Both the position numbers and the translations under genes were made by a program. Below the pieces are notes generated by a model. That model ran no database searches and was not told the DNA's origin. It worked only from the letters and a program-made list of their open reading frames with translations. DNA of 64,000 nt from Clostridiales bacterium. GTDB taxonomy: Bacteria > Bacillota > Clostridia > Ch29. The stretch spans positions 21,009-85,008 of the forward strand of contig JAAYJF010000075.1 in NCBI GenBank assembly GCA_012523075.1. Reading direction: 5' to 3'. Of this stretch, positions 37,079-64,000 are shown piece by piece. Numbering within the stretch: the first letter of the stretch is position 1; each line of letters begins with the position of its first letter.

Positions 37079-37100
37079 CCCATATTAAGGAGGCAATACA

Positions 37101-38525: not shown

Positions 38526-38670
38526 TGTGGAAAATCATACACCGATTAATAACAATCGGTTAACAGACGGTACTGTTCCTCCTGCTACAGTCCGGTCTCT
38601 TTTCCACATATCAACACCCCCTACTACTATTACTACTATATTTTTATATATTTATATAATAAAAACTTGG
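38526..38670. promoter_or_regulatory. oriC: oriC part 2: DnaA boxes plus an AT-rich DNA unwinding element between dnaA and dnaN
   Basis: TTTTCCACA (reverse complement, ~38526) and TTTTCCACA (~38600). The 40-bp AT tract ACTATATTTTTATATATTTATATAATAAAAA ends at the dnaN ribosome-binding site. Confidence 0.7.
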
Positions 38671-39791: not shown

Positions 39792-39802
39792 AAAAGGTAG
39801 CG

Positions 39803-40057
39803 GTGTTAGCATTTAATGTGGGAGATGGTGACGTGGAAAAGGTGCATATAAGGGGACACCATATAACCCTTGGCCAGCTTTTAAAGTTGTCTGGTATCGC
39901 CCAAACGGGTGGCCAGGCAAAATTTATGGTTGCAGACGGAAGGGTTAGGATAAACGGGCGTATAACCTTTCAAAGGGGAAAAAAGGTTTTCCCCGGGGAT
40001 ATTGTGGGTTTGGACGGCAGAGACGTAATAGAGGTGAGACCCGGGGAGCAGGGGTGA
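39803..40057 (+). CDS. yaaA: S4-domain RNA-binding protein YaaA
   Basis: ..TLGQLLKLSGIAQTGGQAKFMVADGRVRINGRI..; GTG start. The alternative start at ~39833 gives a ~75-aa protein like B. subtilis YaaA. Confidence 0.75.
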   Translation: MLAFNVGDGDVEKVHIRGHHITLGQLLKLSGIAQTGGQAKFMVADGRVRINGRITFQRGKKVFPGDIVGLDGRDVIEVRPGEQG

Positions 40058-40073
40058 AAAAACCGATGATTGC

Positions 40074-41204
40074 TTGATTGGAGTGGATGGATTGTACCTT
40101 AGGGAGCTTAAACTTATAAACTTCCGAAACTATAGGGAATCGGCTGTTAGTTTTTCACAGGGAATTAATTTTGTGGTGGGAAATAACGCCCAGGGCAAAA
40201 CAAACCTTGTGGAAGCCATATACCTGCTTTCGTCGGGAAGGTCCTATAGGACGCCGGTTGACAGCGAGTTGCTTAGATGGGGTGCCGATACCCTTTATAT
40301 AAAGGGCAGTGTGGTGGAAAACACAGGCGAAAAGTCCATAGAGATAGGCATAAGGGGTAACAATAAAAGCATTAAGGTTAACGGTGTGCAGCTTGTCAAA
40401 AGGGGTGAACTTTTCGGGAATCTTACAACGGTTATATTTTCCCCCGACGAGCTAAAATTGGTCAAGGAAGGCCCAAGCCACAGGAGAAAGTTTATGGACC
40501 AGGAAATAATTCAGATAAAACCAGCCTATTACTATGTTTTGACCAGCTACAATAAGGTATTGTACCAGAGGAATTCGTTTCTGAAAGCTTCAATGGCGGG
40601 CAGGTTTGATACCGATATCCTCGGGGTATGGGACAAGCAACTGGCCGAATATGGTGCCCGGCTTATCTATTACAGACAAAGATTTATAAAAAGGCTTTCA
40701 GGGTTTGCCAAATCAATGCACAGCAAGCTAACCAACGGCCAGGAGGACCTTGAGGTTACATACCAGTGCTGCATAGGGCAACAGCAAGAGGAAAGTCTTT
40801 CAGATATTCGGTCCTGGTTTTGTGGAAAACTTCAAAGCTGTAGGAGTAGGGATTTTAAAACCGGAGTGACCAACTTTGGTCCCCACAGAGAGGACCTGGG
40901 CGTCAGCGTGAACGGTATAGACGTTAGGAAATACGGGTCCCAGGGACAGCAGAGGACGGCAGCTCTGTCCATGAAACTTTCGGAGATAGAGCTGGTTAAG
41001 TCGGAGACTGGCGAGTATCCTGTGCTGCTTTTGGATGATGTTATGTCTGAGCTTGATCCTTTAAGGCAAAAATATATACTGGAAAACCTGGCCCGGGTGC
41101 AAACCTTTATCACCTGTACCCACCTTACCGGGGTCATGAAAAAAAGGAGCGACAGCGCTAAGGTTTTTCATGTGAATAGTGGTATAATAACTACGGAGGG
41201 CTGA
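40074..41204 (+). CDS. recF: DNA replication and repair protein RecF
   Basis: Walker A GNNAQGKTNL; signature; 376 aa. Confidence 0.95.
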   Translation: MIGVDGLYLRELKLINFRNYRESAVSFSQGINFVVGNNAQGKTNLVEAIYLLSSGRSYRTPVDSELLRWGADTLYIKGSVVENTGEKSIEIGIRGNNKSIKVNGVQLVKRGELFGNLTTVIFSPDELKLVKEGPSHRRKFMDQEIIQIKPAYYYVLTSYNKVLYQRNSFLKASMAGRFDTDILGVWDKQLAEYGARLIYYRQRFIKRLSGFAKSMHSKLTNGQEDLEVTYQCCIGQQQEESLSDIRSWFCGKLQSCRSRDFKTGVTNFGPHREDLGVSVNGIDVRKYGSQGQQRTAALSMKLSEIELVKSETGEYPVLLLDDVMSELDPLRQKYILENLARVQTFITCTHLTGVMKKRSDSAKVFHVNSGIITTEG

Positions 41205-41232
41205 TCGGCTCGGTTGTCAGGAGGAGATAAAG

Positions 41233-43519
<2,287 letters not shown>

Positions 43520-43531
43520 GGGGGAAAGAGC

Positions 43532-45955
43532 ATGACAGAGAAAAAGGACAATATTATCACGATAGACATACAACAGGAAATGAAAAAATCCTATATAGAT
43601 TATGCCATGAGCGTTATAGTAAGCAGAGCCCTCCCCGATGTAAGGGACGGCTTAAAACCGGTGCACCGGAGAATACTGTATGCTATGAGTGAACTGGGCC
43701 TTACTCCGGACAAACCCCACCGAAAATCCGCCCGGATAGTTGGGGATGTACTCGGTAAGTACCATCCCCATGGGGATACCGCTGTTTATGATGCAATGGT
43801 GAGGATGGCCCAAGACTTTTCAACAAGGCAGCCCCTTGTGGACGGGCACGGTAACTTTGGTTCCGTTGACGGGGACAGCGCCGCTGCCATGCGTTATACC
43901 GAAGCAAGAATGGCCAAAATAACCCTCGAGATGCTGAGGGATATAAACAAGGACACGGTGGACTTTATACCCAACTTTGACGAATCCTTGAAGGAACCAG
44001 CGGTTCTGCCATCCAGATTTCCTAATATACTGGTTAACGGAGCGTCGGGTATAGCGGTTGGTATGGCTACCAGCATACCTCCCCACAACCTGGGAGAGGT
44101 AATAGATGGTGTGATAAGGCTTATAGATTACCCTGATATTGGTATAAAGGACCTTACAAAGGTAATTAAGGGGCCGGATTTCCCTACTGGAGCAACCATA
44201 ATGGGTAAGAACGCAATAAGGGAAGCCTATGCCACCGGAAGGGGAAGGGTGACGGTACGGGCCAAGGCTACCATAGAGGCCTCATCGGGCAACCGGCACA
44301 GGATAATAGTCACCGAGATTCCCTACCAGGTCAACAAATCCAGAGTCATCGAAAGGATAGCCCAACTGGTTAGGGATAAAAAGATAGAAGGTATTTCGGA
44401 TATCCGGGATGAAACCGACAGAAAGGGCATGCGTATAGTAATTGAACTTAAAAGGGACGTAAACCCCCAGGTGGTGCTTAACCTGCTTTATAAGCATACC
44501 CAGTTGCAGGATACCTTCAGTATAATTATGATAGCCCTTGTGGATGGACAGCCCAGGGTTCTTAATCTAAAGGAAATACTGGAATACTACCTGGCCCACC
44601 AGAAGGATGTGGTGCGCAAAAGGACCATATACGACCTAAACAAGGCGGAGGAAAGGGCCCATATACTGGAGGGCCTTCGAATTGCCTTGGACAATATAGA
44701 CAGGGTTATTGCAATAATAAGGGGTTCCAAAACCGACCAGATAGCCAGGGACGGCCTTATGAAAGAGTTTGGCCTTTCGGAAAAACAGGCCCAGGCCATA
44801 CTGGATATGAGGCTTCGAAGGCTCACTGGGCTGGAACGGGATAAGATAGACGAGGAATATAATGAACTTCTTGAAAAAATCAGATATTATAAGGAAGTGC
44901 TGGAGAAGGAAGAGCTTTTGGAATCTATAATAAAGGAAGAAATGCTACAAATAAAGGCAAAGTTTGGCGATCTAAGGAGAACTAGTATAGCACCGGATGC
45001 CAAGGAATTCGATATAGAGGACCTTATTGAGGAACAGGAGGTGGCAGTAACCCTTACCCATTTCGGTTATATAAAAAGGGTGCCCGCCGAAACTTATCGC
45101 AGCCAGAGGCGGGGCGGAAGGGGAGTAACTGCGCTAACCACCAAAACCGAGGACTTTGTGGCGGAAATATTTACTACCTCCACGCACAGTTTCATTTTGT
45201 TTTTCACCAATCGGGGGAGGGTGTACCGGCTAAAGGCCTACGAGATTCCTGAGGCGGGAAGGCATGCAAGAGGTACCGCCATAGTAAATCTACTACAGCT
45301 TTCAGGCAATGAAACCATCACCGCTGTTATTCCCATAAGGGAAGTTGAAGAGGAAAAATTTATGCTATTTGCAACCAGGCGAGGCATGGTAAAGAAAACA
45401 CCCTTAAACGAATACGCTTCCAACAGGAAACACGGGCTTCAGGCCATAGACTTGCTGGACGGGGACGAGCTGATAGGTGTAAAGCTTACCACAGGCAGCG
45501 ATCATGTATTATTGGCTACTAAAAAGGGTTATTCAATAAGGTTTAGCGAGAAAGACGTAAGAAGCATGGGCAGATATACCCGGGGAGTTAGGGGTATAGC
45601 CCTTGGCGGCGATGACCAGGTGGTGGGGATGGAATTGGTAAGGGAGGGCGCAGACCTTCTAATCGTTACCGTAAAGGGTTTTGGAAAGAGAACAGAGCTG
45701 GAGGAATACGGGCTGCAAAAAAGAGGCGGCAAAGGGCTAAAGACCTATAGGATAACCCGTAAGACAGGAGACATTGTAGGCATAAAAGTGGTGGACGAGC
45801 ACAACGATATAATGCTTATCACCAAAAAGGGTGTAGTAATAAGGCTTAATGTTAACGAAATCTCAAGGATGGGAAGAATTACCCAGGGTGTAACCCTTAT
45901 GAAGTTTGATAAGGACCAGACGGTGGTATCCATCGCCAGAATTGAAAAGGACTAA
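43532..45955 (+). CDS. gyrA: DNA gyrase subunit A
   Basis: Catalytic region [10 protein letters not shown]; GyrA box; 807 aa. Confidence 0.98.
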
Positions 45956-47849: not shown

Positions 47850-48181
47850 AATCATAAAGCGCCAATATGAATAAAAAACTGACGTCTTTAACCGGTATAG
47901 CGGCAAAAGATGGGCGGTTTTTTCTTTTTGCATCTCATTTTAATTTAGCAGGTATTTTTAAAAAAAGAAGGATTCTTTTTGATTATGTAGAATAGTAATC
48001 AATACTCACTCGCAAAAACCATTGATTATGATATGATTAAAAGGACTGTTAACAAAATAAAGAACGTGTCCATAACTTGTGCTTATCGATACGGACCGGA
48101 TGAATGGGCATCGGAAATGCCTGTTTTCTGTTTGTGGTAAAAATCGGCGGAATATTAAAGCCGACGGCTTTAATATAAATG

Positions 48182-48202
48182 GAATTGCAGATATTGCAAT
48201 TC
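48182..48202. promoter_or_regulatory. Inverted repeat GAATTGCA-GATAT-TGCAATTC upstream of the ABC transporter operon (candidate operator)
   Basis: Perfect 8-bp arms, ~90 bp upstream of the lipoprotein gene start. Confidence 0.3.
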
Positions 48203-48290
48203 TATATATAACTGGGGGAGAGGGGTGAGTTAGTAAAAATATCTGTTAATTGGAATAAAGCTTTAAAAAGATTAAAGGAGGGGTTTTTTA

Positions 48291-49451
48291 ATGACGAAGA
48301 AATATTTAGCTTTTTTGCTTATAGCAATAATGGTATTAGGCATGGTTGCATGTACACCTAGTCAGCCGGCCGAAACGGGCGGTGAGGAACCGGCGGATGA
48401 GCCTGCCGATAAATGGAAGATTGGTATAATGACCAATACCGTTGTCCAGAACGAGGAAGAGTACAGGGCGGCTCAGAACGTACTTGCCAAGTACGGGGAA
48501 GAGCACGTAATACACATGACCTTCCCGGATAAGTTCATGGACGAGCAGGAAACCACGATAGCTAACCTGGTAAGTATGGCTTCGGATCCGGACCTTAAAG
48601 CTCTGGTTATCTGCCAGGCTGTTCCGGGAACATCACCGGGTATTGACAGCATAAAGGAAATAAGGGACGACCTTCTTATTATAGCAGGTCAGCCCCAGGA
48701 AGACCCGCCTATAATATCCAGCAGGGCTGACTTAGTACTCCAGCTGGATGAGATGGGAATGGGTTATTCAATACCCGCCCAGGCAAAGAAACAGGGTGCG
48801 GAGGTTTTCGTACACTATTCCTTCCCAAGGCATATGTCCTATCCTCTTCTCTCAGGCAGAAGGGATTTAATGAAAGAGGAATGCGCAAGGCTTGGTCTTG
48901 AATTTGTGGATGCCACAGCTCCTGACCCCACAGGGGATGCAGGCGTATCGGGAACTCAGCAGTTCATCCTTGAGGACGTTCCGAGGATGGTTGACAAGTA
49001 TGGCAAGAATACTGCGTTCTTTAGCACAAACTGTGCAATGCAGGTGCCGCTTATAAGCGCTGTGGTGGACACCGGCGCGATATACCCGCAGCCCTGCTGC
49101 CCGTCGCCCTACCACGGTTTCCCGTCAGCCCTGGGTATAGAAATACCTGAGGACAAACAGGGTGATATTGGTTATGTTGTGGACGAGATTACCAGAATCA
49201 TGGCCGAAAAGGATATGACCGGAAGGACCTCAACCTGGCCGGTGCCTGTTTCCATGATGTTTATCGAAGGTTCCGCCGAGTATGCCATAGATTGGATCAA
49301 TGGCGAGTTCCAAGAAAAAATTGACATTGAAAGATTACAGCAAAAGTTCCTCGAATACTCCGGGGTTGAATCTACGTTAACCGTTCTGGAAGAAGGCGGC
49401 GTTACCTATGACAACTACTACTGCATCCTGATGGACTTCCTGGATTTCTAA
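48291..49451 (+). CDS. Lipoprotein, periplasmic-binding-protein-like (DUF3798-like), putative substrate-binding component
   Basis: Lipoprotein signal ..VLGMVACTP; 386 aa; first gene of the ABC operon. Confidence 0.55.
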   Translation: MTKKYLAFLLIAIMVLGMVACTPSQPAETGGEEPADEPADKWKIGIMTNTVVQNEEEYRAAQNVLAKYGEEHVIHMTFPDKFMDEQETTIANLVSMASDPDLKALVICQAVPGTSPGIDSIKEIRDDLLIIAGQPQEDPPIISSRADLVLQLDEMGMGYSIPAQAKKQGAEVFVHYSFPRHMSYPLLSGRRDLMKEECARLGLEFVDATAPDPTGDAGVSGTQQFILEDVPRMVDKYGKNTAFFSTNCAMQVPLISAVVDTGAIYPQPCCPSPYHGFPSALGIEIPEDKQGDIGYVVDEITRIMAEKDMTGRTSTWPVPVSMMFIEGSAEYAIDWINGEFQEKIDIERLQQKFLEYSGVESTLTVLEEGGVTYDNYYCILMDFLDF

Positions 49452-49599
49452 AAGGTTAATAAAAGGGACCTTTGCCGCGCCGAGGGTAATAAACCTTTCG
49501 GTGCGGCTGTGCCCTTTTGGGAGGACATTCAAACAGGAAGGTAAGGTTGCCAATAAGGCGGCCTTACCTTTTGATTGAATTTATAAGGTGGTGACCCGA

Positions 49600-51207
49600 A
49601 TGGAAACAGAATACGTTCTACAAATGAAAAATATAGAAAAGGAGTATTACGGAAACAAAGTTCTAAAGGGAGTAGACCTTTCGGTCAAACCGGGAGAAAT
49701 TCATGCTCTCATCGGAGAAAATGGTGCCGGCAAATCCACGCTTATGAATGTACTTTTTGGAATGCCGGTTATACATTCCACCGGAGGGTTTTCTGGGGAA
49801 GTCTATATTAACGGAGAGAAAACGGATATAAAATCACCTTTGCAGGCTATGGAGACAGGTATCGGGATGGTACACCAGGAGTTTATGCTTATACCGGAGT
49901 TTACCATTACCGAGAACATAAAGCTTAACAGGGAGATAACTAAGGAAAATTTCTTAAGCAGGGCGTTTAAAAACAAGGGACTTAAGACCCTGGACACAAG
50001 AGCGATGAATAATGACGCCAGAAAAGCCCTGGACAGGTTAGGACTTGGTATTGATGAATGGGCGACGGTGGCGGGGCTTCCTGTAGGGCATATGCAGTTT
50101 GTGGAGATTGCCAGGGAAATAGATAAAACCGGATTAAAGCTCTTGGTGTTTGATGAGCCTACTGCGGTGCTTGCCGAGAGCGAAGCCGACAACCTTATAG
50201 AAGGCATGAAAAGACTTGCGGCTTCGGGAATAGCCATACTCTTTATAACCCACAGGCTTAACGAGGTATTGCAGGCGGCGGACAACATCACTGTCCTCAG
50301 GGACGGCGAACTGGTTGCCACAAGGAAAAAGGGAGATACAGAAGTGGCAGAGCTTGCCGAGCTTATGGTAGGAAGAAAGATCGATATAAACGGCAAGAAG
50401 GGACAGGAAGAACACGATACCGAAAAGGAAGTAGTCCTAAAGATTAAGAACTTGCACGTTGATATGCCCGGCGAGAAGGTAAAGGGAGTCAACTTGGAGA
50501 TATACAAGGGAGAAATATTTGGAATTGGAGGACTTGCCGGCCAGGGCAAGGTGGGTATCGCAAACGGAATTATGGGGCTTTATTCAAGCACCGGAGAGAT
50601 ACTATTAAAGGGAGAAAAGCTTCAGCTTAACAATACCATGGGTGCCTTAAACAAAGGCCTTGCATTTGTCTCGGAGGACAGGAGAGGTGTGGGGCTGCTG
50701 CTGGATTCCTCAATAGAACTAAATATTGCAGTCACCACCATGCATGTTAAGAATAAGTATCTTAAAAAAGTGGGCTTTCTTGACCAGTTAGACGGCAGGG
50801 CAATAAGGGAACATGCAAACAAAATGATAAAGGACCTGGATATAAGATGTACAGGACCTTGGCAGCTTACAAGGCAGCTTTCGGGAGGAAACCAGCAGAA
50901 GGTATGTGTTGCCAGAGCCCTGACCCTTGACCCTGAGGTGCTGTTCGTTTCCGAACCTACGCGGGGTATAGACATAGGAGCGAAAAAACTGGTGCTTGAC
51001 CTGCTGGTAAAACTAAACCAGGAACTGGGAATGACCATAGTTATGACCTCCAGCGAGCTGGTTGAGCTGCGGTCCATATGTGACAGGATAGCAATTATAT
51101 CCGGTGGCCAGGTTGAAGGCATTCTTAAACCCGGTGCCAGCGACAGAGACTTCGGACTTATGATGGCCGGTGAATATAGAAAGATGCACAATAAGGAGGC
51201 CATGTGA
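49600..51207 (+). CDS. ABC transporter ATP-binding protein (duplicated ATPase, CUT2/nucleoside-sugar type)
   Basis: Two Walker A motifs (GENGAGKST, second degenerate) and two LSGG signatures; AGGTGGTG ribosome-binding site. Confidence 0.9.
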   Translation: METEYVLQMKNIEKEYYGNKVLKGVDLSVKPGEIHALIGENGAGKSTLMNVLFGMPVIHSTGGFSGEVYINGEKTDIKSPLQAMETGIGMVHQEFMLIPEFTITENIKLNREITKENFLSRAFKNKGLKTLDTRAMNNDARKALDRLGLGIDEWATVAGLPVGHMQFVEIAREIDKTGLKLLVFDEPTAVLAESEADNLIEGMKRLAASGIAILFITHRLNEVLQAADNITVLRDGELVATRKKGDTEVAELAELMVGRKIDINGKKGQEEHDTEKEVVLKIKNLHVDMPGEKVKGVNLEIYKGEIFGIGGLAGQGKVGIANGIMGLYSSTGEILLKGEKLQLNNTMGALNKGLAFVSEDRRGVGLLLDSSIELNIAVTTMHVKNKYLKKVGFLDQLDGRAIREHANKMIKDLDIRCTGPWQLTRQLSGGNQQKVCVARALTLDPEVLFVSEPTRGIDIGAKKLVLDLLVKLNQELGMTIVMTSSELVELRSICDRIAIISGGQVEGILKPGASDRDFGLMMAGEYRKMHNKEAM

Positions 51208-51208
51208 T

Positions 51209-52246
51209 ATGAAAAAATTTATAGAAAAGATTGGCCTTCCAAGGCTTATAATCACGCTTATGTTCATAGGCATTTGTATAGCTGCAGTGGTTTTAAAGCT
51301 TCCCTTCGGCATGCTGACCTCAGACGTAATACGAAGGTTCGGTATGTTTGGAGTGCTGGCACTGGCCATGGTGCCGTCAATACAGTGCGGTACCGGACCT
51401 AACTTTGCCCTCCCCATAGGCATTATATGCGGGCTGCTGGGCAGCCTTATAGCTATAGAACTAGGGCTTACTTCCAAGGCGCTGGGCTATGGATTTATAT
51501 CTTCGGTCCTGATATCCCTGCCCCTTGCGGTGCTTACCGGCTGGGCCTACGGACTTTTGCTCAACAAGATTAAGGGCTCCGAGATGCTGGTGGCCACCTA
51601 TACCGGTTTCTCCATCGTTTCCTTTATGCAGATAGGTTGGGTTACACTGCCCTTTAAGCATCCGGAGATGATTTGGCCCATTGGTAAGGGGCTTAGGGTT
51701 ACCGTATCGCTGGATTCAACATTCGGGGAGATTTTAAACAATTTCTTGGGATTTGAAATAGGCTCAGTCTATATTCCGACCGGGCTTTTGCTGTTCTTCT
51801 TTGGTTGCTGCGCAGCGGTGTGGCTGTTTTCCAGAAGCAAAATGGGAACCGAGATGTATACCGCGGGGGCTAATCCCAAGTTTGCCGCCGCATCGGGAAT
51901 TAATGTGGACAAAAACAGGGTTATAGGAACAATCCTGTCGACGGTTATAGGTGCTGTGGGTATAATTGTATATTCCCTCAGTTTCGGTTATCTTCAGCTT
52001 TACCTTGCACCTCTTTATATGGCTTTCCCGGCCGTTGCGGCGGTTCTTATAGGCGGTGCATCCACAAGAAAGGTAAAAATATCCCATGTGCTTATTGGGA
52101 CATTTCTGTTCCAGGGTATGCTTACCATTGCGGTGCCTGTGGCCAATCAGATGTTCCCCGAAGGCAATCTTTCAGAAGTATTGAGGCAGATTGTACAGAA
52201 CGGCATAATACTTTATGCACTCACTAAGGTTGGGGGTGAAGCATAA
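51209..52246 (+). CDS. ABC transporter permease (BMP/sugar-type)
   Basis: Polytopic membrane protein; start MKKFIEKIG.. with an AAGGAGG ribosome-binding site. Overlaps the ATPase stop. Confidence 0.85.
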   Translation: MKKFIEKIGLPRLIITLMFIGICIAAVVLKLPFGMLTSDVIRRFGMFGVLALAMVPSIQCGTGPNFALPIGIICGLLGSLIAIELGLTSKALGYGFISSVLISLPLAVLTGWAYGLLLNKIKGSEMLVATYTGFSIVSFMQIGWVTLPFKHPEMIWPIGKGLRVTVSLDSTFGEILNNFLGFEIGSVYIPTGLLLFFFGCCAAVWLFSRSKMGTEMYTAGANPKFAAASGINVDKNRVIGTILSTVIGAVGIIVYSLSFGYLQLYLAPLYMAFPAVAAVLIGGASTRKVKISHVLIGTFLFQGMLTIAVPVANQMFPEGNLSEVLRQIVQNGIILYALTKVGGEA

Positions 52247-53553
52247 TGGCCCAGATCAGTAACGAAAAAACCGTAAAAACAAACAGGCCAAGCACTACAA
52301 CCAGCATTAAGAGGCTTTTGTTTGACTACAGCGTGCCCGTTCTGTTTATAATAATATGTCTTATTGGGGTTTATTTTTCGGAATTGCCTGCGGTATTCAT
52401 AGTGAATACATTGCTCACCAGGATAACAAGGAATTCATTCATGGTTCTCGCTTTGGTGCTGCCGGTAATAGCTGGGCTGGGACTTAACTTCGGTCTGGTC
52501 ATAGGGGCAATGGCAGGACAGTTTGGGATACTGATAGTAACCCACTTAAAAATCGGTGGGTTCCCGGGTTTCCTACTGTGCCTTCTGCTGTCCACTCCCT
52601 TTGCTATACTTTTCGGACTTATGACAGCCAGGCTGCTTAACAGGACCAAGGGCCAGGAAATGATATCAAGCATGATCGCGGGTTTCTTTGCAAACGGAGC
52701 CTATCAGTTTGTTCTGCTGTTCCTTGTGGGAACGCTGATACCCATTAAGAACCCCGACCTTGTACTGACCCGGGGTATAGGCATAAAGAATACCATAGAC
52801 CTGACAACCGAGTACGGGCTGAAATATTCCATTGACGCCGTTTTTGAATATCCGTTGTTTTACATCCTGGCGGGAGTTGGCGCAATAGCCGGCCTGGTTG
52901 CGATTATCGACTATACTATAAAGAGCAAAAAAGCTCCGGAACGGATTGATAAATTTAAATTTGCCACCCGGCTGGTGGTATCCGGTGCAATCCTCGGGGT
53001 AAGCCTCTGGGTGATAATGTCCGGGTCCATGCTTAATTCGGTTAAACTCCCCGTTGCCACCAGCATTATGATAGCACTGCTCTGGGCGTTCAACGTCCTT
53101 ATAATGAAGACCAAGCTGGGACAGGATTTCAGGACAGTGGGGCACAACATGGACATAGCAAAGATTTCGGGCGTGAACGTCGACAAGACAAGAACCATCG
53201 CGATGATAATATCCACGGTACTTGCTGCCTGGGGCCAGGTAATATTCCTGCAGAATATCGGGACGCTGTCCACCTACGGCAGCCACGTTCAGATTGCTAC
53301 CTTTGCCATTGCCTCAATCCTTTTGGGCGGTGCATCGGTTACCAAGGCAACCAGCGGCCAGGCAATCCTGGGTGTCATTTTGTTCCATACGCTGTTTATA
53401 GTATCTCCCAAGGCCGGTAACAACCTGTTCGGAGACGCGCAGATAGGCGAGTTCTTCAGGGCCTTCGTATCCTATGGTGTTATAGGCGTAGCCTTAGGAT
53501 TGCACGCATGGAACAAAAGAGTCCAAGCCCTTAGAAGGCAGCTTGATGTATAG
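52246..53553 (+). CDS. ABC transporter permease (second subunit)
   Basis: Polytopic; ATGA overlap with the upstream permease stop. Confidence 0.85.
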   Translation: MAQISNEKTVKTNRPSTTTSIKRLLFDYSVPVLFIIICLIGVYFSELPAVFIVNTLLTRITRNSFMVLALVLPVIAGLGLNFGLVIGAMAGQFGILIVTHLKIGGFPGFLLCLLLSTPFAILFGLMTARLLNRTKGQEMISSMIAGFFANGAYQFVLLFLVGTLIPIKNPDLVLTRGIGIKNTIDLTTEYGLKYSIDAVFEYPLFYILAGVGAIAGLVAIIDYTIKSKKAPERIDKFKFATRLVVSGAILGVSLWVIMSGSMLNSVKLPVATSIMIALLWAFNVLIMKTKLGQDFRTVGHNMDIAKISGVNVDKTRTIAMIISTVLAAWGQVIFLQNIGTLSTYGSHVQIATFAIASILLGGASVTKATSGQAILGVILFHTLFIVSPKAGNNLFGDAQIGEFFRAFVSYGVIGVALGLHAWNKRVQALRRQLDV

Positions 53554-53561
53554 CATTCAAA

Positions 53562-53606
53562 ACGCGGCAGGGAAGACCTACAGCCTGTCGCGTTTTTTTA
53601 TTTTTT
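53562..53606 (+). terminator. Rho-independent terminator after the ABC operon
   Basis: ACGCGGCAGG ... CCTGTCGCGT stem followed by TTTTTTTATTTTTT. Confidence 0.6.
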
Positions 53607-53696
53607 GCAATAATATCCGTTATTACGCTCCGGCGCGTTTTAATGTGGTATAATTCAATTATGATTATGGGGAAACATACACTTTTGTGAGGTGGC

Positions 53697-54878
53697 ATGA
53701 TGATACTTGTCAAAAGGAATATACCTCCCCTGGTGTTCCTTGTCGTTTCTGTCATGGCATTTTGTTTTATACACGACAACGCCGCTACAGAGGTCATTAC
53801 TCCTACGCTCCTGCCCGAAACCTATACCAGGGACGCCCATATGGACCAGCCGCCAGCGGATTTCCAAAGCATGAGGGTTCCGGTGAAGGCAAAGGGTATC
53901 TACCTTACCGGGTATACTGCCGGAAGCAACAGGTTTTATGATCTGTTGGACCTTTTAAACAGGACCGAATTAAACGCTATGGTTATTGACGTGAAAAATG
54001 ATGACGGGCTTGTAACCTATAAAACCCGTAACGAAATGGCGAACTTTGTCGGGGCCAACAGGATTGTTCAAATTAAGGATATAGAAAAAAGGATGGCGGA
54101 CCTCCAAAGAGACAAAGTTTACGCCATAGCCAGGATTGTTGCCTTCAAGGACAACCGGGCGGCCAGCAGTCGGCCCGACCTTGCAATCAAAACCACTTCG
54201 GGAACGGTATGGAGAGATAATAAGGGCAATGCCTGGCTTAATCCGTACAACCGCGAGGGCTGGGAATACCTGCTTGAAATTGCAATGGAGGCTGCAGAAC
54301 ACGGGTTTGACGAGATACAGTTTGACTATGTGAGGTTTCCCACCGACGGCAACAGGAGGATTATTCATTACGGGGAGGCTAAAGAAAAGGAAAGCATGTC
54401 CGAGGCCATAGCTGCATTCATGAAATATGCCACCGAAAAGCTTAATAAAAAAGGTGTTTTTGTTTCCGCCGATATATTTGGCCAGGTTACCACCAATAAG
54501 GACGATATGGGACTGGGCCAGCAGCTTGAGGACCTGACGGCAAGCACCAACGTGCTATGTCCCATGGTGTATCCATCCCATTATTATCCCGGAGTTTACG
54601 GGGTTAGCTATCCCGACTTCCAGCCCTACAGAATAGTATATACCAGCATGAGTACTGCGGTTAAAAGGATGGAAGAGGTGGAGACAAGCGGCGACAAGGC
54701 CTTACTGCGGCCCTGGCTGCAGGACTTTACCGCCACTTATCTAAAGGACGGCTACCAGGTCTATGGTCCAAAGCAGGTAAGGGAGCAAATACAGGCTACC
54801 TATGATGCCGGTGTGGAGGAATGGCTTTTGTGGAACGCCGGTAACTATTATACTGAAGGAGCACTGCTTGAGGAATAA
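53697..54878 (+). CDS. Putative glycoside hydrolase, TIM-barrel (DUF4015-like), with N-terminal signal/TM
   Basis: 393 aa; N-terminal hydrophobic segment; ..GFDEIQFDYVRFP.. motif typical of this family. Confidence 0.55.
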   Translation: MMILVKRNIPPLVFLVVSVMAFCFIHDNAATEVITPTLLPETYTRDAHMDQPPADFQSMRVPVKAKGIYLTGYTAGSNRFYDLLDLLNRTELNAMVIDVKNDDGLVTYKTRNEMANFVGANRIVQIKDIEKRMADLQRDKVYAIARIVAFKDNRAASSRPDLAIKTTSGTVWRDNKGNAWLNPYNREGWEYLLEIAMEAAEHGFDEIQFDYVRFPTDGNRRIIHYGEAKEKESMSEAIAAFMKYATEKLNKKGVFVSADIFGQVTTNKDDMGLGQQLEDLTASTNVLCPMVYPSHYYPGVYGVSYPDFQPYRIVYTSMSTAVKRMEEVETSGDKALLRPWLQDFTATYLKDGYQVYGPKQVREQIQATYDAGVEEWLLWNAGNYYTEGALLEE

Positions 54879-55220
54879 AGGGCGTAAAGCCCTTTTGCTT
54901 TATACACGTTATATTTAGGCTTCACGAAGGTGAATTGCCAGGCATCCATCATCTACGCTGCGCAAACCCGCAGTAATGCTCGTATGAGCTCGATGGCTCC
55001 GGGAATTTTCAAAAACTCGCCTAACGGCTCAAACACTTGAAAATTCTTATCCTCCGCCCTCTGCGCTCCTTTTATTTGTGCGGGATAAAGCTCCGCTTCA
55101 GATGACTTGATGCCTGGTTACGAAACGTTTGGGGTGATATGAGGTTTCATGATGTCCATAAAACGGTTTGAATAAGTTGAGGTTTTCTTCAGACTGAGGG
55201 GCGTAAAGCCCTTTTTTAAT
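54879..55220. repeat. Segment bounded by direct repeats GGGCGTAAAGCCCTTTT containing a degenerate copy of the dispersed repeat family
   Basis: The direct repeat occurs at 54879-54897 and 55201-55220. The internal ..CTCCGCCCTC.. and ..GATGACTTGATGCCTGGTTACGAAA resemble the 61403 copy. Confidence 0.3.
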
Positions 55221-55548
55221 ATTATCGCACGCCGGGGGGCAGAATAGTATCAAACGGCAATGCGGGAGGGATACAAAGAGGGGATGGGTGGACTGAGTAT
55301 AATGAAAAGGATTATTTCTGTAATAGGCAGAGGTTCCGGGAAAAAGGATACGGAATTCGCCAACGAAGACGGGCCGGTTCTACACGGGGATACCGAGGAT
55401 CCGTCCGGGCCAACCGCCCGTTCGGATACGGTGCAGCCCACCGGGGACGTGTACAGCAAACAGGAGAAGATACAGGAAGGAAAATAGGGATGTACTCCCT
55501 ATTTTTAATTAGAGAAAAAGAGGGTATAACTAGAGGTATAAATGCCAA

Positions 55549-55619
55549 TTGACACCAAAAAAAAGTGGTGATACAATATATTGTATAACCAATCATGGGA
55601 ATAACACTATATATAGTAC
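55549..55619 (+). promoter_or_regulatory. nrdJ promoter (TTGACA-17-TACAAT) with two NrdR boxes
   Basis: -35 at 55549-55554 and -10 at 55572-55577. NrdR box 1 ATACAATATATTGTAT (55571-55586) is a perfect palindrome overlapping the -10. Box 2 ACACTATATATAGTAC (55604-55619) lies ~33 bp downstream. Confidence 0.65.
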
Positions 55620-55631
55620 GGGGGTGTACAT

Positions 55632-57899
55632 GTGCAGCTTTCGGATAATGCCATTAGGGTTTTGGAAAGGAGATACCTTACAAAGAATGAAGAGGGAGAG
55701 GTAATAGAGGCTCCGGAGCAGATGTTCCGACGGGTAGCCCGTACGGTAGCATCGGCGGAGGCCTGTTACAATACCGGCACCAACCCTGAGGAGCTGGAAG
55801 AAACCTTTTACCAGCTGCTTAGCAGCCTTGAGTTTATCCCGAACTCGCCTACCCTTATGAATGCCGGCAAGGACCTGGGGCAGCTTTCCGCATGCTTTGT
55901 GCTACCGGTGGAAGATTCCATGGAGGGAATATTCGACGCGATAAAACAGGCGGCAATAATACACAAGAGCGGTGGGGGGACGGGCTTTAGCTTTTCACGG
56001 CTCCGTCCCGCCGGTGCTACGGTAAATTCCACTGGCGGCGTGGCTTCTGGACCGGTTAGCTTTATGAAGGTTTTTAACGCCGCCACCGAGGCGGTAAAGC
56101 AGGGGGGCGTACGAAGGGGTGCCAACATGGGTATTCTGCGGGTGGACCACCCGGATATCCTGGAATTCATTAAATGCAAGAGCGATAATAAGGATATTAC
56201 CAACTTCAATATTTCCGTTGCAGTTACCGAGGAATTTATGAGGGCGGTGGAAAGGGGCGGGGAGTATGCCCTTATAAATCCCCGGGATAAAAGCATTATC
56301 CGGTACATAGATGCAAGGGAAGTCTTTGACCTTATAGTGGAAATGGCGTGGAAGAATGGTGAGCCCGGTATCATATTCATAGACAGGATTAACGAATACA
56401 ATATTCTTAAAAAAATTGGGGATATAGAGAGTACAAACCCGTGCGGGGAGCAAGTTCTGTTACCCTATGAATCCTGCAATTTAGGCTCCATAAACCTGGC
56501 CAGGCTGGTCAAAAAAGAAGGAGACAAGACGGTTATTGACTACCAAAGGCTTGGCAAAATAGTGGATGACGCCGTTTGGTTCCTTGACAACGTGATTGAT
56601 GTAAATAAGTATCCGCTGGAGTCAATCGAAAAAGCCACTAAAGGTTCCAGAAAGATAGGCCTTGGTGTGATGGGCTTTGCGGATATGCTTATAAGGCTAG
56701 GGATACCCTATGATACGGACGAGGCGGTTGCGGCTGCCGAGGAGGTTATGGGCTTTATAAACCGGCGCTCCAAGGAAAAGTCGGCAGAGCTTGCCGCGGT
56801 AAAAGGGAGGTTCCCCTTTTATCAAGACAGTACCTACGCGGCGCAAGGCATTGAACTTAGAAATGCCACCACCACCACCATAGCCCCCACCGGTACCATA
56901 AGCATAATCGCCAACGTCTCCAGCGGCATAGAACCCTTGTTTGCTCTATCCTTTGTACGCAACGTGATGGATAATGACCGCCTGCCGGAGGTGCATCCCA
57001 TATTTGAGGAAATAGCCAAAAGAAAAGGGTTTTATAGCCGGGAACTGATGGAAGAGATTGCCCGCAAAGGAACGCTGCGGGATATAGGGGGTGTGCCGGA
57101 GGATGTAAAAAGGCTATTTGCGACGGCCCATGACATAGGCCCCGAGTGGCACGTAAGGATGCAGGCTGCTTTCCAGAGGCATACCGACAATGCGGTGTCC
57201 AAAACGGTTAATTTCCCCAGCCATGCCACAAGGGAGGACGTGCGGAAGGTATACCTCCTTGCGCACAAACTGGGCTGTAAGGGAGTAACCATATACAGGG
57301 ACAAAAGCAGGGAAGAGCAGGTACTTAGCATTGGAAACCATGACGGCGCTCGGGGGGGTGCGAAGGGCGAAAAGGCGGCAGGGGCCGCGGGGAGAGAGAC
57401 CATAACCCCCAGAACAAGGCCGGAGATTACCAAGGGGCTTACCGAGAAGGTGAAGATTGGCTGTGGCAACCTTTATATAACGGTAAACTATGATGATAGT
57501 GGTATATGCGAGGTATTCACCAACCTGGGCCGTGCCGGGGGATGCCCCAGCCAAAGCGAAGCCACCAGCCGGCTTGTATCCATAGCCCTCCGGTCGGGGA
57601 TAAGCGTTGAAGCGATAATAGAGCAACTTAAAGGGATACGCTGCCATTCAACCATCAGGCAAAAGGCCAACGGAAACGAGGTGAAGGTGCTTTCCTGCCC
57701 CGATGCCATAGGAAAAGCCATTGAAAGGGCCATGAAAATGAACCGCGGAGCCGGTGCCATTGTTAAGGAGGACCTGACGGCCGAGGGTGCTCCGGCCAGG
57801 GACGGTTTAAAGGCTATATGCCCCGAGTGCAACGGTGCGCTGGAGCACGAGAGTGGCTGCGTTGTGTGCCGTAGCTGCGGGTTTTCAAGGTGCGGCTGA
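55632..57899 (+). CDS. nrdJ: Adenosylcobalamin-dependent ribonucleoside-triphosphate/diphosphate reductase (class II RNR)
   Basis: 755 aa; active-site TNPCGEQ; C-terminal Cys pairs [14 protein letters not shown]; GTG start with a GGGGGTG ribosome-binding site. Confidence 0.93.
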
Positions 57900-58079
57900 T
57901 GTGGTAGCAAATCTGCAGTGGAATTTTCATAAAAGGGGTTTACCAACGTTGAATATTATGCTATACTGTACTAGCAAAACAAAATATGGAAACAAAGGGG
58001 AGTAACTCGCCATTTATTTGGTTTTGCCGTCCGTCATCACGGCACCCACGGTGTCCGGGCGGTAATCTTTAAAGAGAGT

Positions 58080-58122
58080 AAGACCTTTATCCACTGCCTT
58101 GGATAGAGGTCTTGTATTTTTT
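58080..58122 (+). terminator. Intrinsic terminator / attenuator hairpin in the 5' leader of the P-type ATPase gene
   Basis: AAGACCTTTATCC ... GATAGAGGTCTT stem followed by GTATTTTTT, 50 nt before the ATPase ATG. Confidence 0.55.
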
Positions 58123-58171
58123 GGTCCCCAAAGGATATAACTATAATGTCAATCTGAAAGGAGAAAGCCGA

Positions 58172-60832
58172 ATGGTAAACGGGGAATGGTACACCTTGGA
58201 AAGGGAGTCTGTGGAGAAGAAGCTTTCTACTTCTATGACTAAAGGGCTTAGCCGGCAAGAAGCGGTCCATAGGCTGAAGCAGTACGGCTACAACGAGATT
58301 GCCCAAAAGGACAGGAAGACCATATTCCAGATGTACGTTGACCAGTTCAAGGACTTTATGATAATAATACTAATAGTTGCCGCAGTAATCTCGGGCCTTT
58401 TGAGGGAATTTACCGATGCGGTGGTTATACTGCTAATAGTGATATTAAACGCTGTTATGGGGGTGGTCCAGGAGAATAAGGCGGAGGAATCCCTGGCGGC
58501 GTTAAAGCGAATGGCGGCACCCAACGCCAAGGTGCTAAGGGGCGGACGCCACGACATAGTACCTGCCAGGCAGCTGGTGCCAGGGGATGTCATAATACTT
58601 GAAACGGGGGACCTGGTGCCTGCCGATATAAGGATAACCACAGCTTCAAACCTGAAGATTCAGGAAGCCGCCCTAACCGGAGAATCCGTTCCGGTGGAAA
58701 AAGACACAAAGCCCCTAGCGCAAAAGAACATCCCTTTGGGTGACCGTGTCAACATGGGCTATTCGGGGAGCATTGTGACCTATGGCCGGGGCAGCGGTAT
58801 CGTTGTGGGGACCGGCATGGAAACAGAAGTAGGCAAGATTGCCGAAATGATACAGTCTGCCGAAGAGGTGGAGACTCCGCTCAAAAAAAGGCTCCAGGCT
58901 CTGGGAAAAATCTTGGGCCTCTCTGCCCTTACCATTTGCGCGGTAATTTTTGTAGTAGGAGTATTATACGGAAAAGGGATATTCGAGATGTTCCTCACGT
59001 CGGTAAGCCTGGCAGTGGCCGCCATACCCGAAGGGCTACCGGCTATTGCCACCATAGTGCTTGCCATAGGCGTACAGCGTATGGTAAAACGAAACGCCAT
59101 AGTAAGAAGGCTGCCCTCGGTGGAGACCCTGGGTAGTGCAACGGTAATTTGCTCGGACAAGACCGGAACGCTCACCCAAAACAGGATGACGGTGGAGAAG
59201 ATGTATTACCACAGCGGTATTTGCAGCGTTGCCGAGGCCATTAATGGTGAGAACAAAAGCGACCTTTTCCGGTTGCTTGTTATGACGGGGGTACTGTGCA
59301 ACGATTCCAAGCTTAAGGAAAGCGAAGAGGGAATAATAGCCTTGGGCGACCCAACCGAGACAGCACTGATAGACCTTGGCCTCAAGGCAGATATAAACAA
59401 GGACACGCTGGAGGCGGAGCAGCCAAGGGTGGACGAGGTGCCCTTCGATTCCAAGCGTAAGCTTATGACCACGGTACACGCGCTTGAAAATCGTTACCGT
59501 GTTTATACAAAGGGAGCGGTTGAAGAACTGCTTAGGATATCCGACAGCATTTTGCAGGACGGGCGGGCCGTAAAGCTGGAGGAACATCACAGGGCCGCCA
59601 TACTGGAAACAAACGAGAGGATGGCACGGGATGCCATGAGGGTGCTCGGGATGGCCTATAAGGATATTGACACCCTTTCGCAGGAAAGCGGGGAGGAAGC
59701 CTACGAAAGTGGTCTTATATTCATAGGAATGATGGGAATGATAGACCCTCCGCGACCGGAGGCCTGCGAAGCGGTAAAACTTTGCAAAAGGGCGGGCATA
59801 AAGCCGGTAATGATAACCGGAGACCATAGCGTCACTGCCGTGGCGATAGCCCGGGACTTGGGGATACTCACCGGGGATGAGGAGGCGGTTACCGGGGCCC
59901 AGCTGGAGGATATGAGCGACGGAGAGCTGGAAGAAAGGGTGCGGCGCATTTCGGTATATGCCAGGGTCTCCCCTGAGCATAAGGTAAGGATAGTTAAGGC
60001 CTGGCAGAAACAGGGCCAGATAGTGGCCATGACCGGGGACGGGGTGAATGACGCCCCGGCTCTCAAGATTGCCGATATCGGTGCGGCTATGGGCATTGTG
60101 GGTACCGACGTGGCAAAGGAAGCCTCGGATATGGTCCTGACCGATGACAACTTTGCTACGGTGGTGGCGGCGGTTGAGGAAGGAAGGACTATATTTGCCA
60201 ATATTCTAAAGGCTATACAGTTTCTGCTTTCCTGCAATGTGGGAGAGATTTTGACGCTGTTTGTTGCCACAATGCTAAACTGGCACCAACCGCTTTTGCC
60301 CATTCATATACTATGGGTTAACCTAGTGACCGACAGCCTGCCGGCTCTTGCCCTCGGGGTGGACCCGGCGGAGAAGAACATAATGGACAGAAAACCCAGG
60401 GACCCGGAACGTAACATCTTCGATAAGGGCATGGTAATAAGGATAGTATACCAGGGGATAATGGTGGGGACCCTAACGCTCACAGCCTTCGTATTTGGCA
60501 GCCAAAGGAGCCTGGAGGCCTGAAGGACCATGGCCTTCACCGTGCTGGCGTTAAGCCAGTTGGTTCACTCTTTCAATATGCGCTCAAATAGGCAGTCGGT
60601 ATTTAAGACAGGATTTACGTCAAACAAATACCTTCTAGGGGCGGTGTTAATATCGGCAATGCTGGTATTTATTGTTCTCGAGGTGCCCTTCCTTGCATCG
60701 GTGTTTAGGCTTACAACGCTTAGTATGAAAGAGTGGATAACGGTAGGGCTGCTGGCCCTGGCTCCTATTGTAGTGGTGGAAACAGCGAAGTTTTTGAAAC
60801 TGAACACCACCGCAAATGAGTATGAGGCTTAA
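58172..60832 (+). pseudogene. P-type cation-transporting ATPase (Ca2+-ATPase, YloB/PMCA-SERCA-like) interrupted by an in-frame TGA at 60521-60523
   Basis: 58172..60523 encodes TM1-TM7 plus the DKTGT phosphorylation loop. After the in-frame TGA and two codons, 60530..60832 in the same frame encodes the TM8-TM10 region (..RTMAFTVLALSQLVHSFN..). AAAGGAGAAAG ribosome-binding site at the start. Confidence 0.7.
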
Positions 60833-60871
60833 CGGGTTTTCTTACCCAGCACTGTAGAGGGGTGATATCAA

Positions 60872-61369
60872 TTGTCATTTATACGTTGTTTCCCACCGGT
60901 TGTGGATGAAGAATCTCGGGTAATTATACTGGGGTCCATGCCTGGCCGGGAATCCCTACGAAAAAAAGAATACTACGGCCACCCCAGGAACCAGTTTTGG
61001 AACGTTTTGTACGCTTTGTACGACAGGGAGCCGGACTGGGACTACGGTAAAAAGCTCGCGTTCCTTAAGGAAAAGCATATCGCTCTCTGGGACGTAATAG
61101 AAACGTGCCAGAGGGAGGGAAGTATGGACGCCAATATTACAGGCGAAAAGGCAAACGATTTTGACTGGCTGTTTTGCAACTATCCCGGCATCCGGCATGC
61201 ATTCTTCAACGGAACCAAAGCCTATGAGACCTTCAGAAAAAGGGTAGGTTTCAGGTATGATGGAATTACCTATACAAAATTGGGCTCCACAAGCCCTGCC
61301 AACGTGGTGCAGTTTGAACGGCGGCTGGAGGAATGGAGCATTGTAAAGAGATGCGCGATGAACTTATAA
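60872..61369 (+). CDS. DNA-deoxyinosine glycosylase-like protein (UDG superfamily family 6 / hypoxanthine-DNA glycosylase)
   Basis: 165 aa; ..VIILGSMPG..; ..GSTSPAN.. Confidence 0.5.
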   Translation: MSFIRCFPPVVDEESRVIILGSMPGRESLRKKEYYGHPRNQFWNVLYALYDREPDWDYGKKLAFLKEKHIALWDVIETCQREGSMDANITGEKANDFDWLFCNYPGIRHAFFNGTKAYETFRKRVGFRYDGITYTKLGSTSPANVVQFERRLEEWSIVKRCAMNL

Positions 61370-61402
61370 TCTCCTCCTAAAGGAAGCTATATATAACGCG
61401 AT

Positions 61403-61572
61403 AAAGACTTTACATCTTTTAGCGTGTCATCCTGAGCGCAGCGAAGGATCTTATGCCTGGTTGTAAAAAGATTCTTCGGGCTCCGCCCTCAGAATGACAG
61501 GGTAGGATTCTTCGGGCTTCGCCAACTTAAATGACAAGTAAAGCAATGTAATATTATTAATACTTTGTATAT
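61403..61572 (-). repeat. Dispersed composite intergenic repeat, copy 4 (reverse orientation)
   Basis: GTCATCCTGAGCGCAGCGAAGGATC ... GATTCTTCGGGCTCCGCCCTCAGAATGAC ... GATTCTTCGGGCTTCGCC ... AATGTAATATTATTAATACTTTGTATAT. Its reverse complement matches the termini of copies 1 and 3. Confidence 0.6.
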
Positions 61573-61649
61573 AGCAAGCCAAAGCACAGTATTGCCCGTT
61601 GATAGTGGGTATAGTATTTATTATACTGCTCCAGGCATGGGAGACCGGG

Positions 61650-61844
61650 TTAGAACAGGTTGTTTCTTCCGGCTTCCCTCAACTCATTGACGGGTACCTC
61701 CAGGGTATTGCCCGTCTCCAAAAGCCTTATGCCGGCGGTTTGCTTTGTCTCGTCAATGCTGTCAATCCAGACCGGTGTGTTGTTGTACAGCACTTTAATG
61801 GTGTCCGGGGATTTTAATATTTCGGATGCTCTTTGGGTAAGCAC
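61650..61844 (-). CDS. sspH: Small acid-soluble spore protein H
   Basis: GTG start with a perfect AAAGGAGGTG ribosome-binding site; (M)LTQRASEILKSPDTIKVLYNNTPVWIDSIDETKQTAGIRLLETG.. matches the SspH family; 64 aa. Confidence 0.75.
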   Translation of the reverse strand: MLTQRASEILKSPDTIKVLYNNTPVWIDSIDETKQTAGIRLLETGNTLEVPVNELREAGRNNLF

Positions 61845-62022
61845 TGCGGCACCTCCTTTGTTTTTACTGATTTGAATAATAATATTATTTAATAAAAGAG
61901 CCGTATTATACAATATATATCAAAGGTTATAAGTAAATCTAATCAAAACGAAGGAATTGACAAATATTAATAGAAATGATAAGGATAAAGCGTAAATAAA
62001 CCATTTGGAGGGAGGAAGGGGT

Positions 62023-62364
62023 ATGCCCTGGTGTCCCGAATGTAAAACCGAGTACAGGGAGGGCTTTAGCGTTTGTGCCGACTGCGGCTGCGCCCTTACC
62101 TGGCATAGGCCCCGCGAAGATACCCCGGAAGGGCCCGGGGAAAATGGGGCCTGGGAACATCTGGTGTTTTTATACAACGAGATGGAGGCGGATATAGTGA
62201 CAGGCCTGCTTGAAACCGAGGGGATTCCTGTTATAAAGACCTATAAAGGGATGGGGGTGCTGCACAAGGTATACACCGGAAAGGCTACCGGGGTGGACCT
62301 GTTTGTTCCTGCGGAAAGATTAGCTCAGGCAAAGGAACTGCTGGCGGCACAAACCAGAGACTAA
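62023..62364 (+). CDS. Zinc-ribbon plus DUF2007-like (PII-like) small protein
   Basis: MPWCPECKTEYREGFSVCADCGC..; GGAGGGAGGAAGGGG ribosome-binding site. Confidence 0.5.
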   Translation: MPWCPECKTEYREGFSVCADCGCALTWHRPREDTPEGPGENGAWEHLVFLYNEMEADIVTGLLETEGIPVIKTYKGMGVLHKVYTGKATGVDLFVPAERLAQAKELLAAQTRD

Positions 62365-62594
62365 GGCAAAAAACTACTTCCCGGCCAGATTATTTATACT
62401 TGCCAGGAAGAATAAAGGCGCGATTAAGACATTACAAGGCACAAAATGCAAGTCGAAAACTGAACCAACTATTGCCACAAGCCAATCTCCAAGGATTGTA
62501 AATGAGTTGTATATAGAACGTTATGTTAACAGAGTTGTACAGTGGCAAAGACCACTGATGAAACAACTATAATAATTGTACAAGGAGTGATTTT

Positions 62595-63797
62595 ATGGTT
62601 TCTAAATCTATGTATGCCCTGGGTGCACAGCCCTCCGGAATTCGTGAATTATTCGAATTTGGACGGCAGCGTGCAAAAGAAGTTGGAGCTGAAAACGTAT
62701 TTGATTTTAGCCTGGGTAACCCCAGCATTCCGGCTCCCGGTATGGTAGCAGAGGCCATTTCAAAAACTTTGACAGAGGTATCCCCTGTTGCGGTTCATGG
62801 TTATACCAGTGCTGCGGGCAGCGATGCCTGCCGTGACGCTATTGCAGAAAACCTGAACTCAAGATATAGTACGGGATACACAAGAAATAACGTTTTCATA
62901 ACTTGCGGTGCAGCACCAGCTTTGGTTGCTACTTTTCGGGCATTGGCCGATGACGACGGTGGCAGCGAATTCATTGTCATTGCACCTTTCTTTCCTGAAT
63001 ACAGAGTATTCATAGGAAATGCGGGCGGGAAACCCGTTATAGTTCCGCCTGATACTGATCGTTTCCAGATTGATTTTAATGCTCTTGAAACCGCAATTAA
63101 CGAGCGCACTGCGGCAGTTTTAATAAACTCGCCGAATAACCCTTCCGGCGTTGTCTACACCGAAGGAACCATTAAAATGCTAGCTAAACTTTTGGAGGAA
63201 AAATCCAGGGAATTTGGCCATCCAATCTTCCTGGTTTCAGATGAGCCTTATAGAGAGTTGGTCTATGGTGACGTGCAGGTTCCTTTTGTCCCTAACTATT
63301 ACGATAATACCATCGTTTGCTATTCATTCAGCAAGTCCCTTTCGTTACCGGGTGAGCGTATCGGTTACGTGCTGGTGCCGGACAGTGTTGAGGATGCCCG
63401 TACCGTATTTCTTGCCGTCGCCGGCTCTGCCCGATCGATGGGCCATGTGTGCGCGCCCTCTCTCATGCAGCATGTAATCACAGCCTGCATCAATCTGGTA
63501 CCTGACGTAGCGGTTTACCAGCGCAACGCCAACCTGCTCTATGATGCACTGACCTCCTATGGTTATAACTGCGCTAAGCCGGATGGGGCCTTCTACCTCT
63601 TCTTTGAAGCACCCTGTGGCATAAGCGCCCCGGAGTTTTCTGACTTTGCAAAGGAACGCTATAATGTCCTGGTGGTACCCGGTGACAGTTTCGGCTGTCC
63701 GAATTGGCTTCGCCTTTCCTATTGCGTGGAAACAGAGAGGATAAAAAACGCACTGCCGCGACTGAAACAAATAATTGATCATTTGAAGGAGAAATAG
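62595..63797 (+). CDS. Pyridoxal-phosphate-dependent aminotransferase, class I/II (aspartate/aromatic aminotransferase-like)
   Basis: 400 aa; ..YSFSKSLSLPGERIGY.. PLP-lysine motif; AGGAGTG ribosome-binding site. Confidence 0.9.
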   Translation: MVSKSMYALGAQPSGIRELFEFGRQRAKEVGAENVFDFSLGNPSIPAPGMVAEAISKTLTEVSPVAVHGYTSAAGSDACRDAIAENLNSRYSTGYTRNNVFITCGAAPALVATFRALADDDGGSEFIVIAPFFPEYRVFIGNAGGKPVIVPPDTDRFQIDFNALETAINERTAAVLINSPNNPSGVVYTEGTIKMLAKLLEEKSREFGHPIFLVSDEPYRELVYGDVQVPFVPNYYDNTIVCYSFSKSLSLPGERIGYVLVPDSVEDARTVFLAVAGSARSMGHVCAPSLMQHVITACINLVPDVAVYQRNANLLYDALTSYGYNCAKPDGAFYLFFEAPCGISAPEFSDFAKERYNVLVVPGDSFGCPNWLRLSYCVETERIKNALPRLKQIIDHLKEK

Positions 63798-64000
63798 GCA
63801 ATTATTTAGCATTTTCGGAAAGAACTCATGTATGTTAAGGTTTGCTGCCTGGTTTCCCGCCTACTCATAACGAGGATGGCGGGTGCACACCCAGGCTATT
63901 ATATGTTCCCATCTGAAAGAACGCTTATCGGTAAAGTAGCTCCGAAAACTGGGAAAATCGTACCAATGCATATTATCTGATTCTTGAGGAAACAGCGCGC

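Follow-up and report, generated by a model that had tools for sequence, protein, structure and literature searches.

A probable recent G-to-T nonsense mutation in a P-type Ca2+ ATPase gene of an anaerobic-digester Clostridia population

The window, by which we mean the whole stretch of 64,000 nucleotides that was analysed, carries a P-type Ca2+ ATPase gene that is interrupted by a premature TGA codon at positions 60521-60523 of the plus strand. The explanation that we favour, and consider quite probable, is that a recent G-to-T substitution turned the GGA codon of Gly784 into TGA and knocked out the pump in one population of digester Clostridia, leaving a segregating loss-of-function allele or new pseudogene. 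A recent nonsense mutation was one of the readings offered in an earlier note on this DNA, and it has held up well: the intact conspecific allele differs from the window within the gene at this one base. On this reading, a familiar family of pumps has acquired a recent nonsense polymorphism, which is an ordinary event of an already known kind.

Across the lesion the gene reads ...AGC CTG GAG GCC TGA AGG ACC ATG GCC TTC... in the window sequence. Translated in a single frame from 58172 to 60835, it gives GSQRSLEA, the stop and then RTMAFTVLAL (the same stop context in the translation is written GSQRSLEA, stop, RTMAFTVLALSQLVH), with this one internal stop and a terminal TAA at 60830-60832. Both open reading frames therefore lie in the same frame, with 783 codons from the ATG at 58172 and 100 codons from the ATG at 60530. 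The upstream, N-terminal part (58172-60523, plus strand, 783 codons and the premature TGA) comprises the A, P and N domains and M1-M7. It matches the Pfam domains Cation_ATPase_N, E1-E2_ATPase, Cation_ATPase, Hydrolase and the first half of Cation_ATPase_C, and in the protein search it was identical to P0002, the window's own 783-residue product. The downstream part (60530-60832, plus strand, 100 codons and TAA) comprises M8-M10 and aligns with residues 784-876 of LMCA1. All five Pfam domains are found in the ATPase, and the last of them, Cation_ATPase_C, is cut cleanly, the upstream part matching profile positions 2-74 and the downstream part 87-175. Because this domain is shared across both open reading frames, they are two halves of one gene. 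This bears out the earlier description of an ATPase split by one in-frame TGA, with a C-terminal stretch of 100 codons holding TM8-10.

The details of the N-terminal half need some correction. The start had been placed at 58172, which stands: a GGAG at 58160 precedes this ATG, which is the biological start, and the resulting N-terminus MVNGEWY agrees with that of intact orthologues. The accompanying count of 803 codons belongs to a mechanical open reading frame beginning at the TTG at 58112, whereas the ATG gives 783. The truncated product, put earlier at 88 kDa, has a computed mass of 85.3 kDa, and that of the downstream product is 11.1 kDa.

The ancestral codon can be read from intact alleles of the same species. 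P0122 (886 aa), which belongs to the 90% cluster of P0002 (sources: NCBI, JGI, ENA and Logan assemblies), equals the read-through translation of the window at every residue, except that Gly stands in place of the stop. It is encoded on 18 contigs from many samples, 10 of which were fetched and aligned to the window across 15.8 kb of shared DNA. Nine of the fetched contigs are 99.84-99.99% identical to the window over this length; L010, the remaining one, reaches 98.5%; its coverage is given as about 1.6x, and it differs from the window mostly by gaps. In the per-site comparison, position 60521 is T in the window and in one further contig, L001, and G in all 10 fetched contigs, so that the comparison with sister strains proposed in the earlier note returned an intact 886-residue allele on every one of them. 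The stop arose from GGA (Gly784) by a G>T transversion of the first base of the codon, and the route from TGG that had been suggested before is wrong. No other difference separates the T and G alleles within 58172-60832; the lesion must therefore be very young, with no decay accumulated. Elsewhere in the 15.8 kb, 17 further sites vary; these are ordinary polymorphisms and for the most part synonymous.

Judged as a pseudogene, the window allele carries a disabling lesion relative to intact orthologues, namely Gly784 to stop in an otherwise identical 886-residue allele. It resembles young pseudogenes and segregating nonsense polymorphisms in bacteria in having a single stop without further decay. 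Further shared traits are the dominance of intact alleles elsewhere in the species and the restriction of the stop to one sampled population. Two shorter members of the 90% cluster, P0124 (96 aa) and P0126 (76 aa), were considered as independent disruptions of the gene and rejected as assembly noise. Both come from L092, an indel-ridden assembly of 1.5x coverage that has G at 60521 and whose neighbouring genes, EF-G among them, are likewise broken up.

Among the assemblies compared, the T allele is confined to the window and two assemblies of a single run, SRR3166067. The first is L001, a MEGAHIT contig from ENA, and the second is the Logan assembly of the same run, in which a 1,133-bp contig (L094) has T and is identical to the window. 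The run belongs to BioProject PRJNA283612, a biogas-upgrading reactor study from DTU (PMC5985405). The three consensus sequences with T may all derive from a single reactor system. Exact-pattern scans for the 54-nt site, with any base allowed at 60521, gave no match in the genome and metagenome contig collections.

Apart from 60521, where both have T, the window and L001 disagree at 8 sites, which places the stop allele on two consensus backgrounds that are slightly different. Over the compared positions 48172-64000, the window has the common haplotype with a private synonymous C at 55823. L001 has seven private differences, consisting of a one-base insertion and six substitutions (49076, 51883, 53124, 53214, 54590 and 57847). 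The two backgrounds could stem from recombination, from a mixed-strain consensus or from overlapping or shared reads.

This distribution bears on whether the T is real. A sequencing error, which the earlier note had listed as a possible cause, is unlikely, and we regard the wider proposal of a sequencing or assembly artefact as improbable too. It would mean that the real codon is GGA, with the T either miscalled systematically or taken into the consensus in error from a minor variant. The T is indeed limited to the window and to data tied to one run, and the site is preceded by GGCC and lies within an inverted repeat. GGCC together with an inverted repeat is a known context for Illumina sequence-specific errors, and library damage through 8-oxoG likewise shows up as G>T. 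Against this, two assemblers (ENA MEGAHIT for L001, Logan for L094) give T from SRR3166067, and the window is a further consensus with T that is not identical to L001. The window is otherwise extremely clean, with 2 differences and no indels relative to the fetched contig L002 over 15.8 kb. An error driven by context would also be expected to recur, if the sequencing platform were the same, yet all 10 of the other assemblies show G.

The pump itself is a PMR1/LMCA1-type P-type Ca2+ (probably Ca2+/Mn2+) efflux ATPase, as judged from profile and alignment evidence. Against the NCBIfam equivalog TIGR01522 (PMR1-type), whose cut-off is 798.3, the intact allele P0122 reaches 801.1 bits. The SERCA-type (717 against 703) and PMCA-type (547 against 507) models are passed too, the PMR1-type being the best. 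The catalytic motifs CSDKTGTLT (DKTGT), LTGES (TGES) and TGDGVNDAP, as well as IPEGLP in M4, can be read in the translation. Aligned by eye, M8 of the window pump has Gln where SERCA has Glu908, an indication that it is a single-site pump, as LMCA1 and SPCA are.

Among relatives of solved structure, Listeria LMCA1 comes first, with E = 9e-227 over residues 22-876, and human SPCA1 follows with E = 1e-178. Listeria monocytogenes LMCA1 (lmo0841; PDB 6ZHF, 6ZHG and 6ZHH), human SPCA1/ATP2C1 and yeast PMR1 are P2A Ca2+(/Mn2+) ATPases, and LMCA1 and SPCA1 match the protein over its full length. Unlike these pumps, the window allele is interrupted before M8, while the intact allele found elsewhere is an ordinary family member. 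A single uninterrupted polypeptide with ten TM helices is thus encoded by the conspecific alleles and not by the window allele. In LMCA1 the stop corresponds to Ser784 (...SPEM-S-VAMAFTTL...), two residues ahead of M8, the helix beginning TMAF. The hydropathy profile agrees with the canonical layout, placing M7 at about 755-776 and M9 and M10 at 824-874. On this alignment the break is in the short extracytoplasmic M7-M8 loop and not inside a domain.

The position of the break, outside any domain and in a short inter-helix loop, fits the idea of a functional two-piece pump. Translation would stop at the UGA and re-initiate 6 nt further on, at the ATG at 60530, and the mutation would be nearly neutral. 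It is conceivable that the 783-residue (M1-M7) and 100-residue (M8-M10) chains then assemble in the membrane as an active ATPase. The local geometry suits termination-reinitiation, since a GGAGG (60514-60518, plus strand), lying within the codons for Leu-Glu-Ala, stands 11 nt 5' of this ATG, exactly as the earlier note had claimed, and could serve as an accidental Shine-Dalgarno sequence. The downstream open reading frame is also wholly intact. Nothing here appears to have evolved for such a role, however. The GGAGG and the ATG are pre-existing coding sequence, the one encoding LEA and the other the conserved Met of the RTMAF motif, which is invariant in 122 of 122 homologues. Both are present in the intact alleles, as are the palindrome arms described below, and together they encode LEA-G-RTMAF there. 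The lesion is also too young to have been tested by selection.

Nor is the gene split in its relatives. The best 120 protein matches are about 875-920 aa long, save for contig-end fragments and the window's own 783-residue product, and no orthologue among them or among 75 species-level genome loci is split at this position. A naturally split two-gene ATPase, as entertained in the earlier note, was rejected on these grounds, and we give the two-piece pump as a whole little credence. Slightly less likely still is the specific proposal that the nonsense allele is not a knock-out, with a re-initiated 11-kDa M8-M10 chain co-assembling with the 85-kDa M1-M7 chain into a working pump. Were it true, this would be a natural P-type ATPase that tolerates a break between its core and support helices, and a gene fission at its onset.

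The homologues also inform on what the codon might encode. An orthologue alignment, as the earlier note had advised, places Gly, Ala, Asp, Trp or Pro at the stop. In the MAFFT alignment of 122 close homologues, which covered the C-terminal 270 residues, the column holds G in 91, A in 30 and P in 1, and the following T-M-x-F positions are invariant. The same codon in the 75 species-level genome loci is GGN in 42, GCN in 22, GAY in 6 and TGG in 5 (G, A, D and W respectively). None of these 75 loci has a stop in this segment, and neither they nor the 122 homologues have TGA or Cys at the column.

Programmed recoding, in which the UGA would stand for selenocysteine, or be decoded as Trp or Gly through programmed read-through or an alternative code, seems to us extremely unlikely and is largely refuted already. 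UGA is the leakiest stop codon. Trp at the column in 5 of the 75 loci, all distant relatives, suggests that a Trp read-through product would probably work, and a modest hairpin lies 19 nt 3' of the stop. Yet in the conspecific alleles the codon is GGA for Gly, neither TGA nor Cys occurs at the column in any relative, and no tRNA-Sec was found in the window. The local RNA fold at the stop is no better than that of shuffled sequences (z = -1.2; 27 of 200 shuffles fold as well), and a permissive scan gave no Rfam match at E <= 10 in 60450-60650. TGA ends 12 of the 44 long open reading frames in the window, including well-conserved genes, and no internal TGA was seen in the window's other conserved genes. 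A bacterial selenoprotein gene was rejected from the residues at the column, the fold and the missing Rfam match, and a reassigned code (UGA as Gly or Trp) from the stop usage. The programmed read-through raised in the earlier note likewise finds no support, there being no stop in homologues or species-level loci.

The earlier note had also drawn attention to a near-palindrome at the TGA. It is present, as TGAAGGACCATGGCCTTCA at 60521-60539 on the plus strand (TGAAGG-ACCATGG-CCTTCA), and its fold is not unusual. The same stretch codes for G-R-T-M-A-F in the intact allele, where the arms are found too, as GAAGG/CCTTC. Considered as a signal, it is coding sequence with no demonstrable signal, given the fold and the Rfam result above.

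If the young nonsense allele is taken as the correct reading, the G>T transversion would have arisen very recently in a single population of an uncultured Clostridia species from anaerobic digesters. Translation would end at the UGA and yield an 85-kDa protein without M8-M10, and a P2-type pump that lacks these support helices is expected to be unstable or inactive. UGA leakiness might yield a trace of full-length protein, in which tRNA-Trp would give Trp784; any such read-through would amount to leakage and would not be programmed. Some re-initiation of the 100-residue tail might also follow from the chance combination of GGAGG and ATG. Because both predate the mutation, this would be accident and not design, and neither the read-through trace nor the re-initiation is an evolved mechanism.

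The locus is best annotated as one disrupted Ca2+/Mn2+ P-type ATPase (Gly784 to stop), and neither as two genes nor as a recoding site. The stop has little significance beyond annotation. It is a clean instance of a loss-of-function allele that segregates within a digester population and, should reads bear out the T, might be used to mark the strain or hint at a relaxed need for Ca2+/Mn2+ efflux in the reactor.

A more useful by-product than the stop is the leader of the gene. The leader region (57939-58171, plus strand) holds Mn2+-riboswitch-like motifs, AAAGGGGAGUA ... AAGACCUUUAU, followed by a terminator. At its 5' end lies a promoter-like site (57939-57967, plus strand), a consensus match only, which reads TTTACC-17 nt-TATACT with TG before the -10 hexamer. 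A leader element of about 105 nt occupies the space between this site and the ribosome binding site. Its conserved structured part (57985-58077, plus strand) carries the yybP-ykoY-like motifs AAAGGGGAGUAAC ... GUCAUCAC ... AGAGAGUAAGACCUUUAU, which match RF00080 below threshold. A strong intrinsic terminator follows (58078-58122, plus strand), with a 16-bp stem at 58078-58115 and a T-run. The 5' arm of the terminator overlaps the putative 3' strand of the closing helix P1, and this overlap is the logic of an ON switch in what would be a putative riboswitch.

Seven orthologous leaders are nearly identical; AAAGGGGAGUA and AGAGAGUAAGACCUUU are invariant across them, and 4 base pairs show compensatory changes. 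The leader shares the GGGGAGUA and AAGACCUUU motifs, the terminator and a downstream PMR1-like ATPase with the yybP-ykoY Mn2+ riboswitch of Streptococcus pneumoniae MgtA. In that organism the riboswitch activates MgtA, a Mn2+/Ca2+ P-type ATPase (PMC6649816). Unlike members of RF00080, the leaders here stay at 16-21 bits, short of the gathering score of 45 (16.1 for the window, 20.7 and 16.6 for the orthologous leaders L013 and L012), so that the resemblance rests on sub-threshold matches. No riboswitch was found at the Rfam gathering threshold in the window or upstream of the ATPase in 15 orthologous loci. The leader may represent a divergent form of yybP-ykoY, far below threshold under the current model, and its resemblance to the Mn2+ riboswitch suggests that the role of the pump includes Mn2+ export. 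Should it prove to be a divergent Mn2+ riboswitch, it would both point to Mn2+ export and add a variant.

The ATPase gene is flanked by a class II ribonucleotide reductase gene (55632-57899) and a gene of the uracil-DNA glycosylase family (60872-61369). It lies about 21 kb from dnaA-dnaN-recF-gyrB-gyrA, on the dnaA side, and is co-oriented with dnaA. By Pfam, positions 30963-45955 of the window probably belong to the chromosomal origin region, with mnmG and mnmE on the minus strand and dnaA, dnaN, recF, gyrB and gyrA on the plus strand. A tRNA cluster on the minus strand at 3483-3820 (Lys-CTT, Asp-GTC and Thr-TGT) provides the only Rfam families at the gathering threshold in the window.

In an orthologous locus of 80% identity (L014, from a metagenome-assembled genome labelled Bacillota bacterium Ch29), a group II intron lies directly 3' of the ATPase gene at 5779-7308. 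It matches RF02001, RF01998 and RF00029, and is absent from the window. In a sister lineage of 78% identity (L097 and L098, positions 1-1228), the ribonucleotide reductase has 1,124 aa and by Pfam contains an intein with a LAGLIDADG endonuclease, while that of the window has 755 aa and is without the intein.
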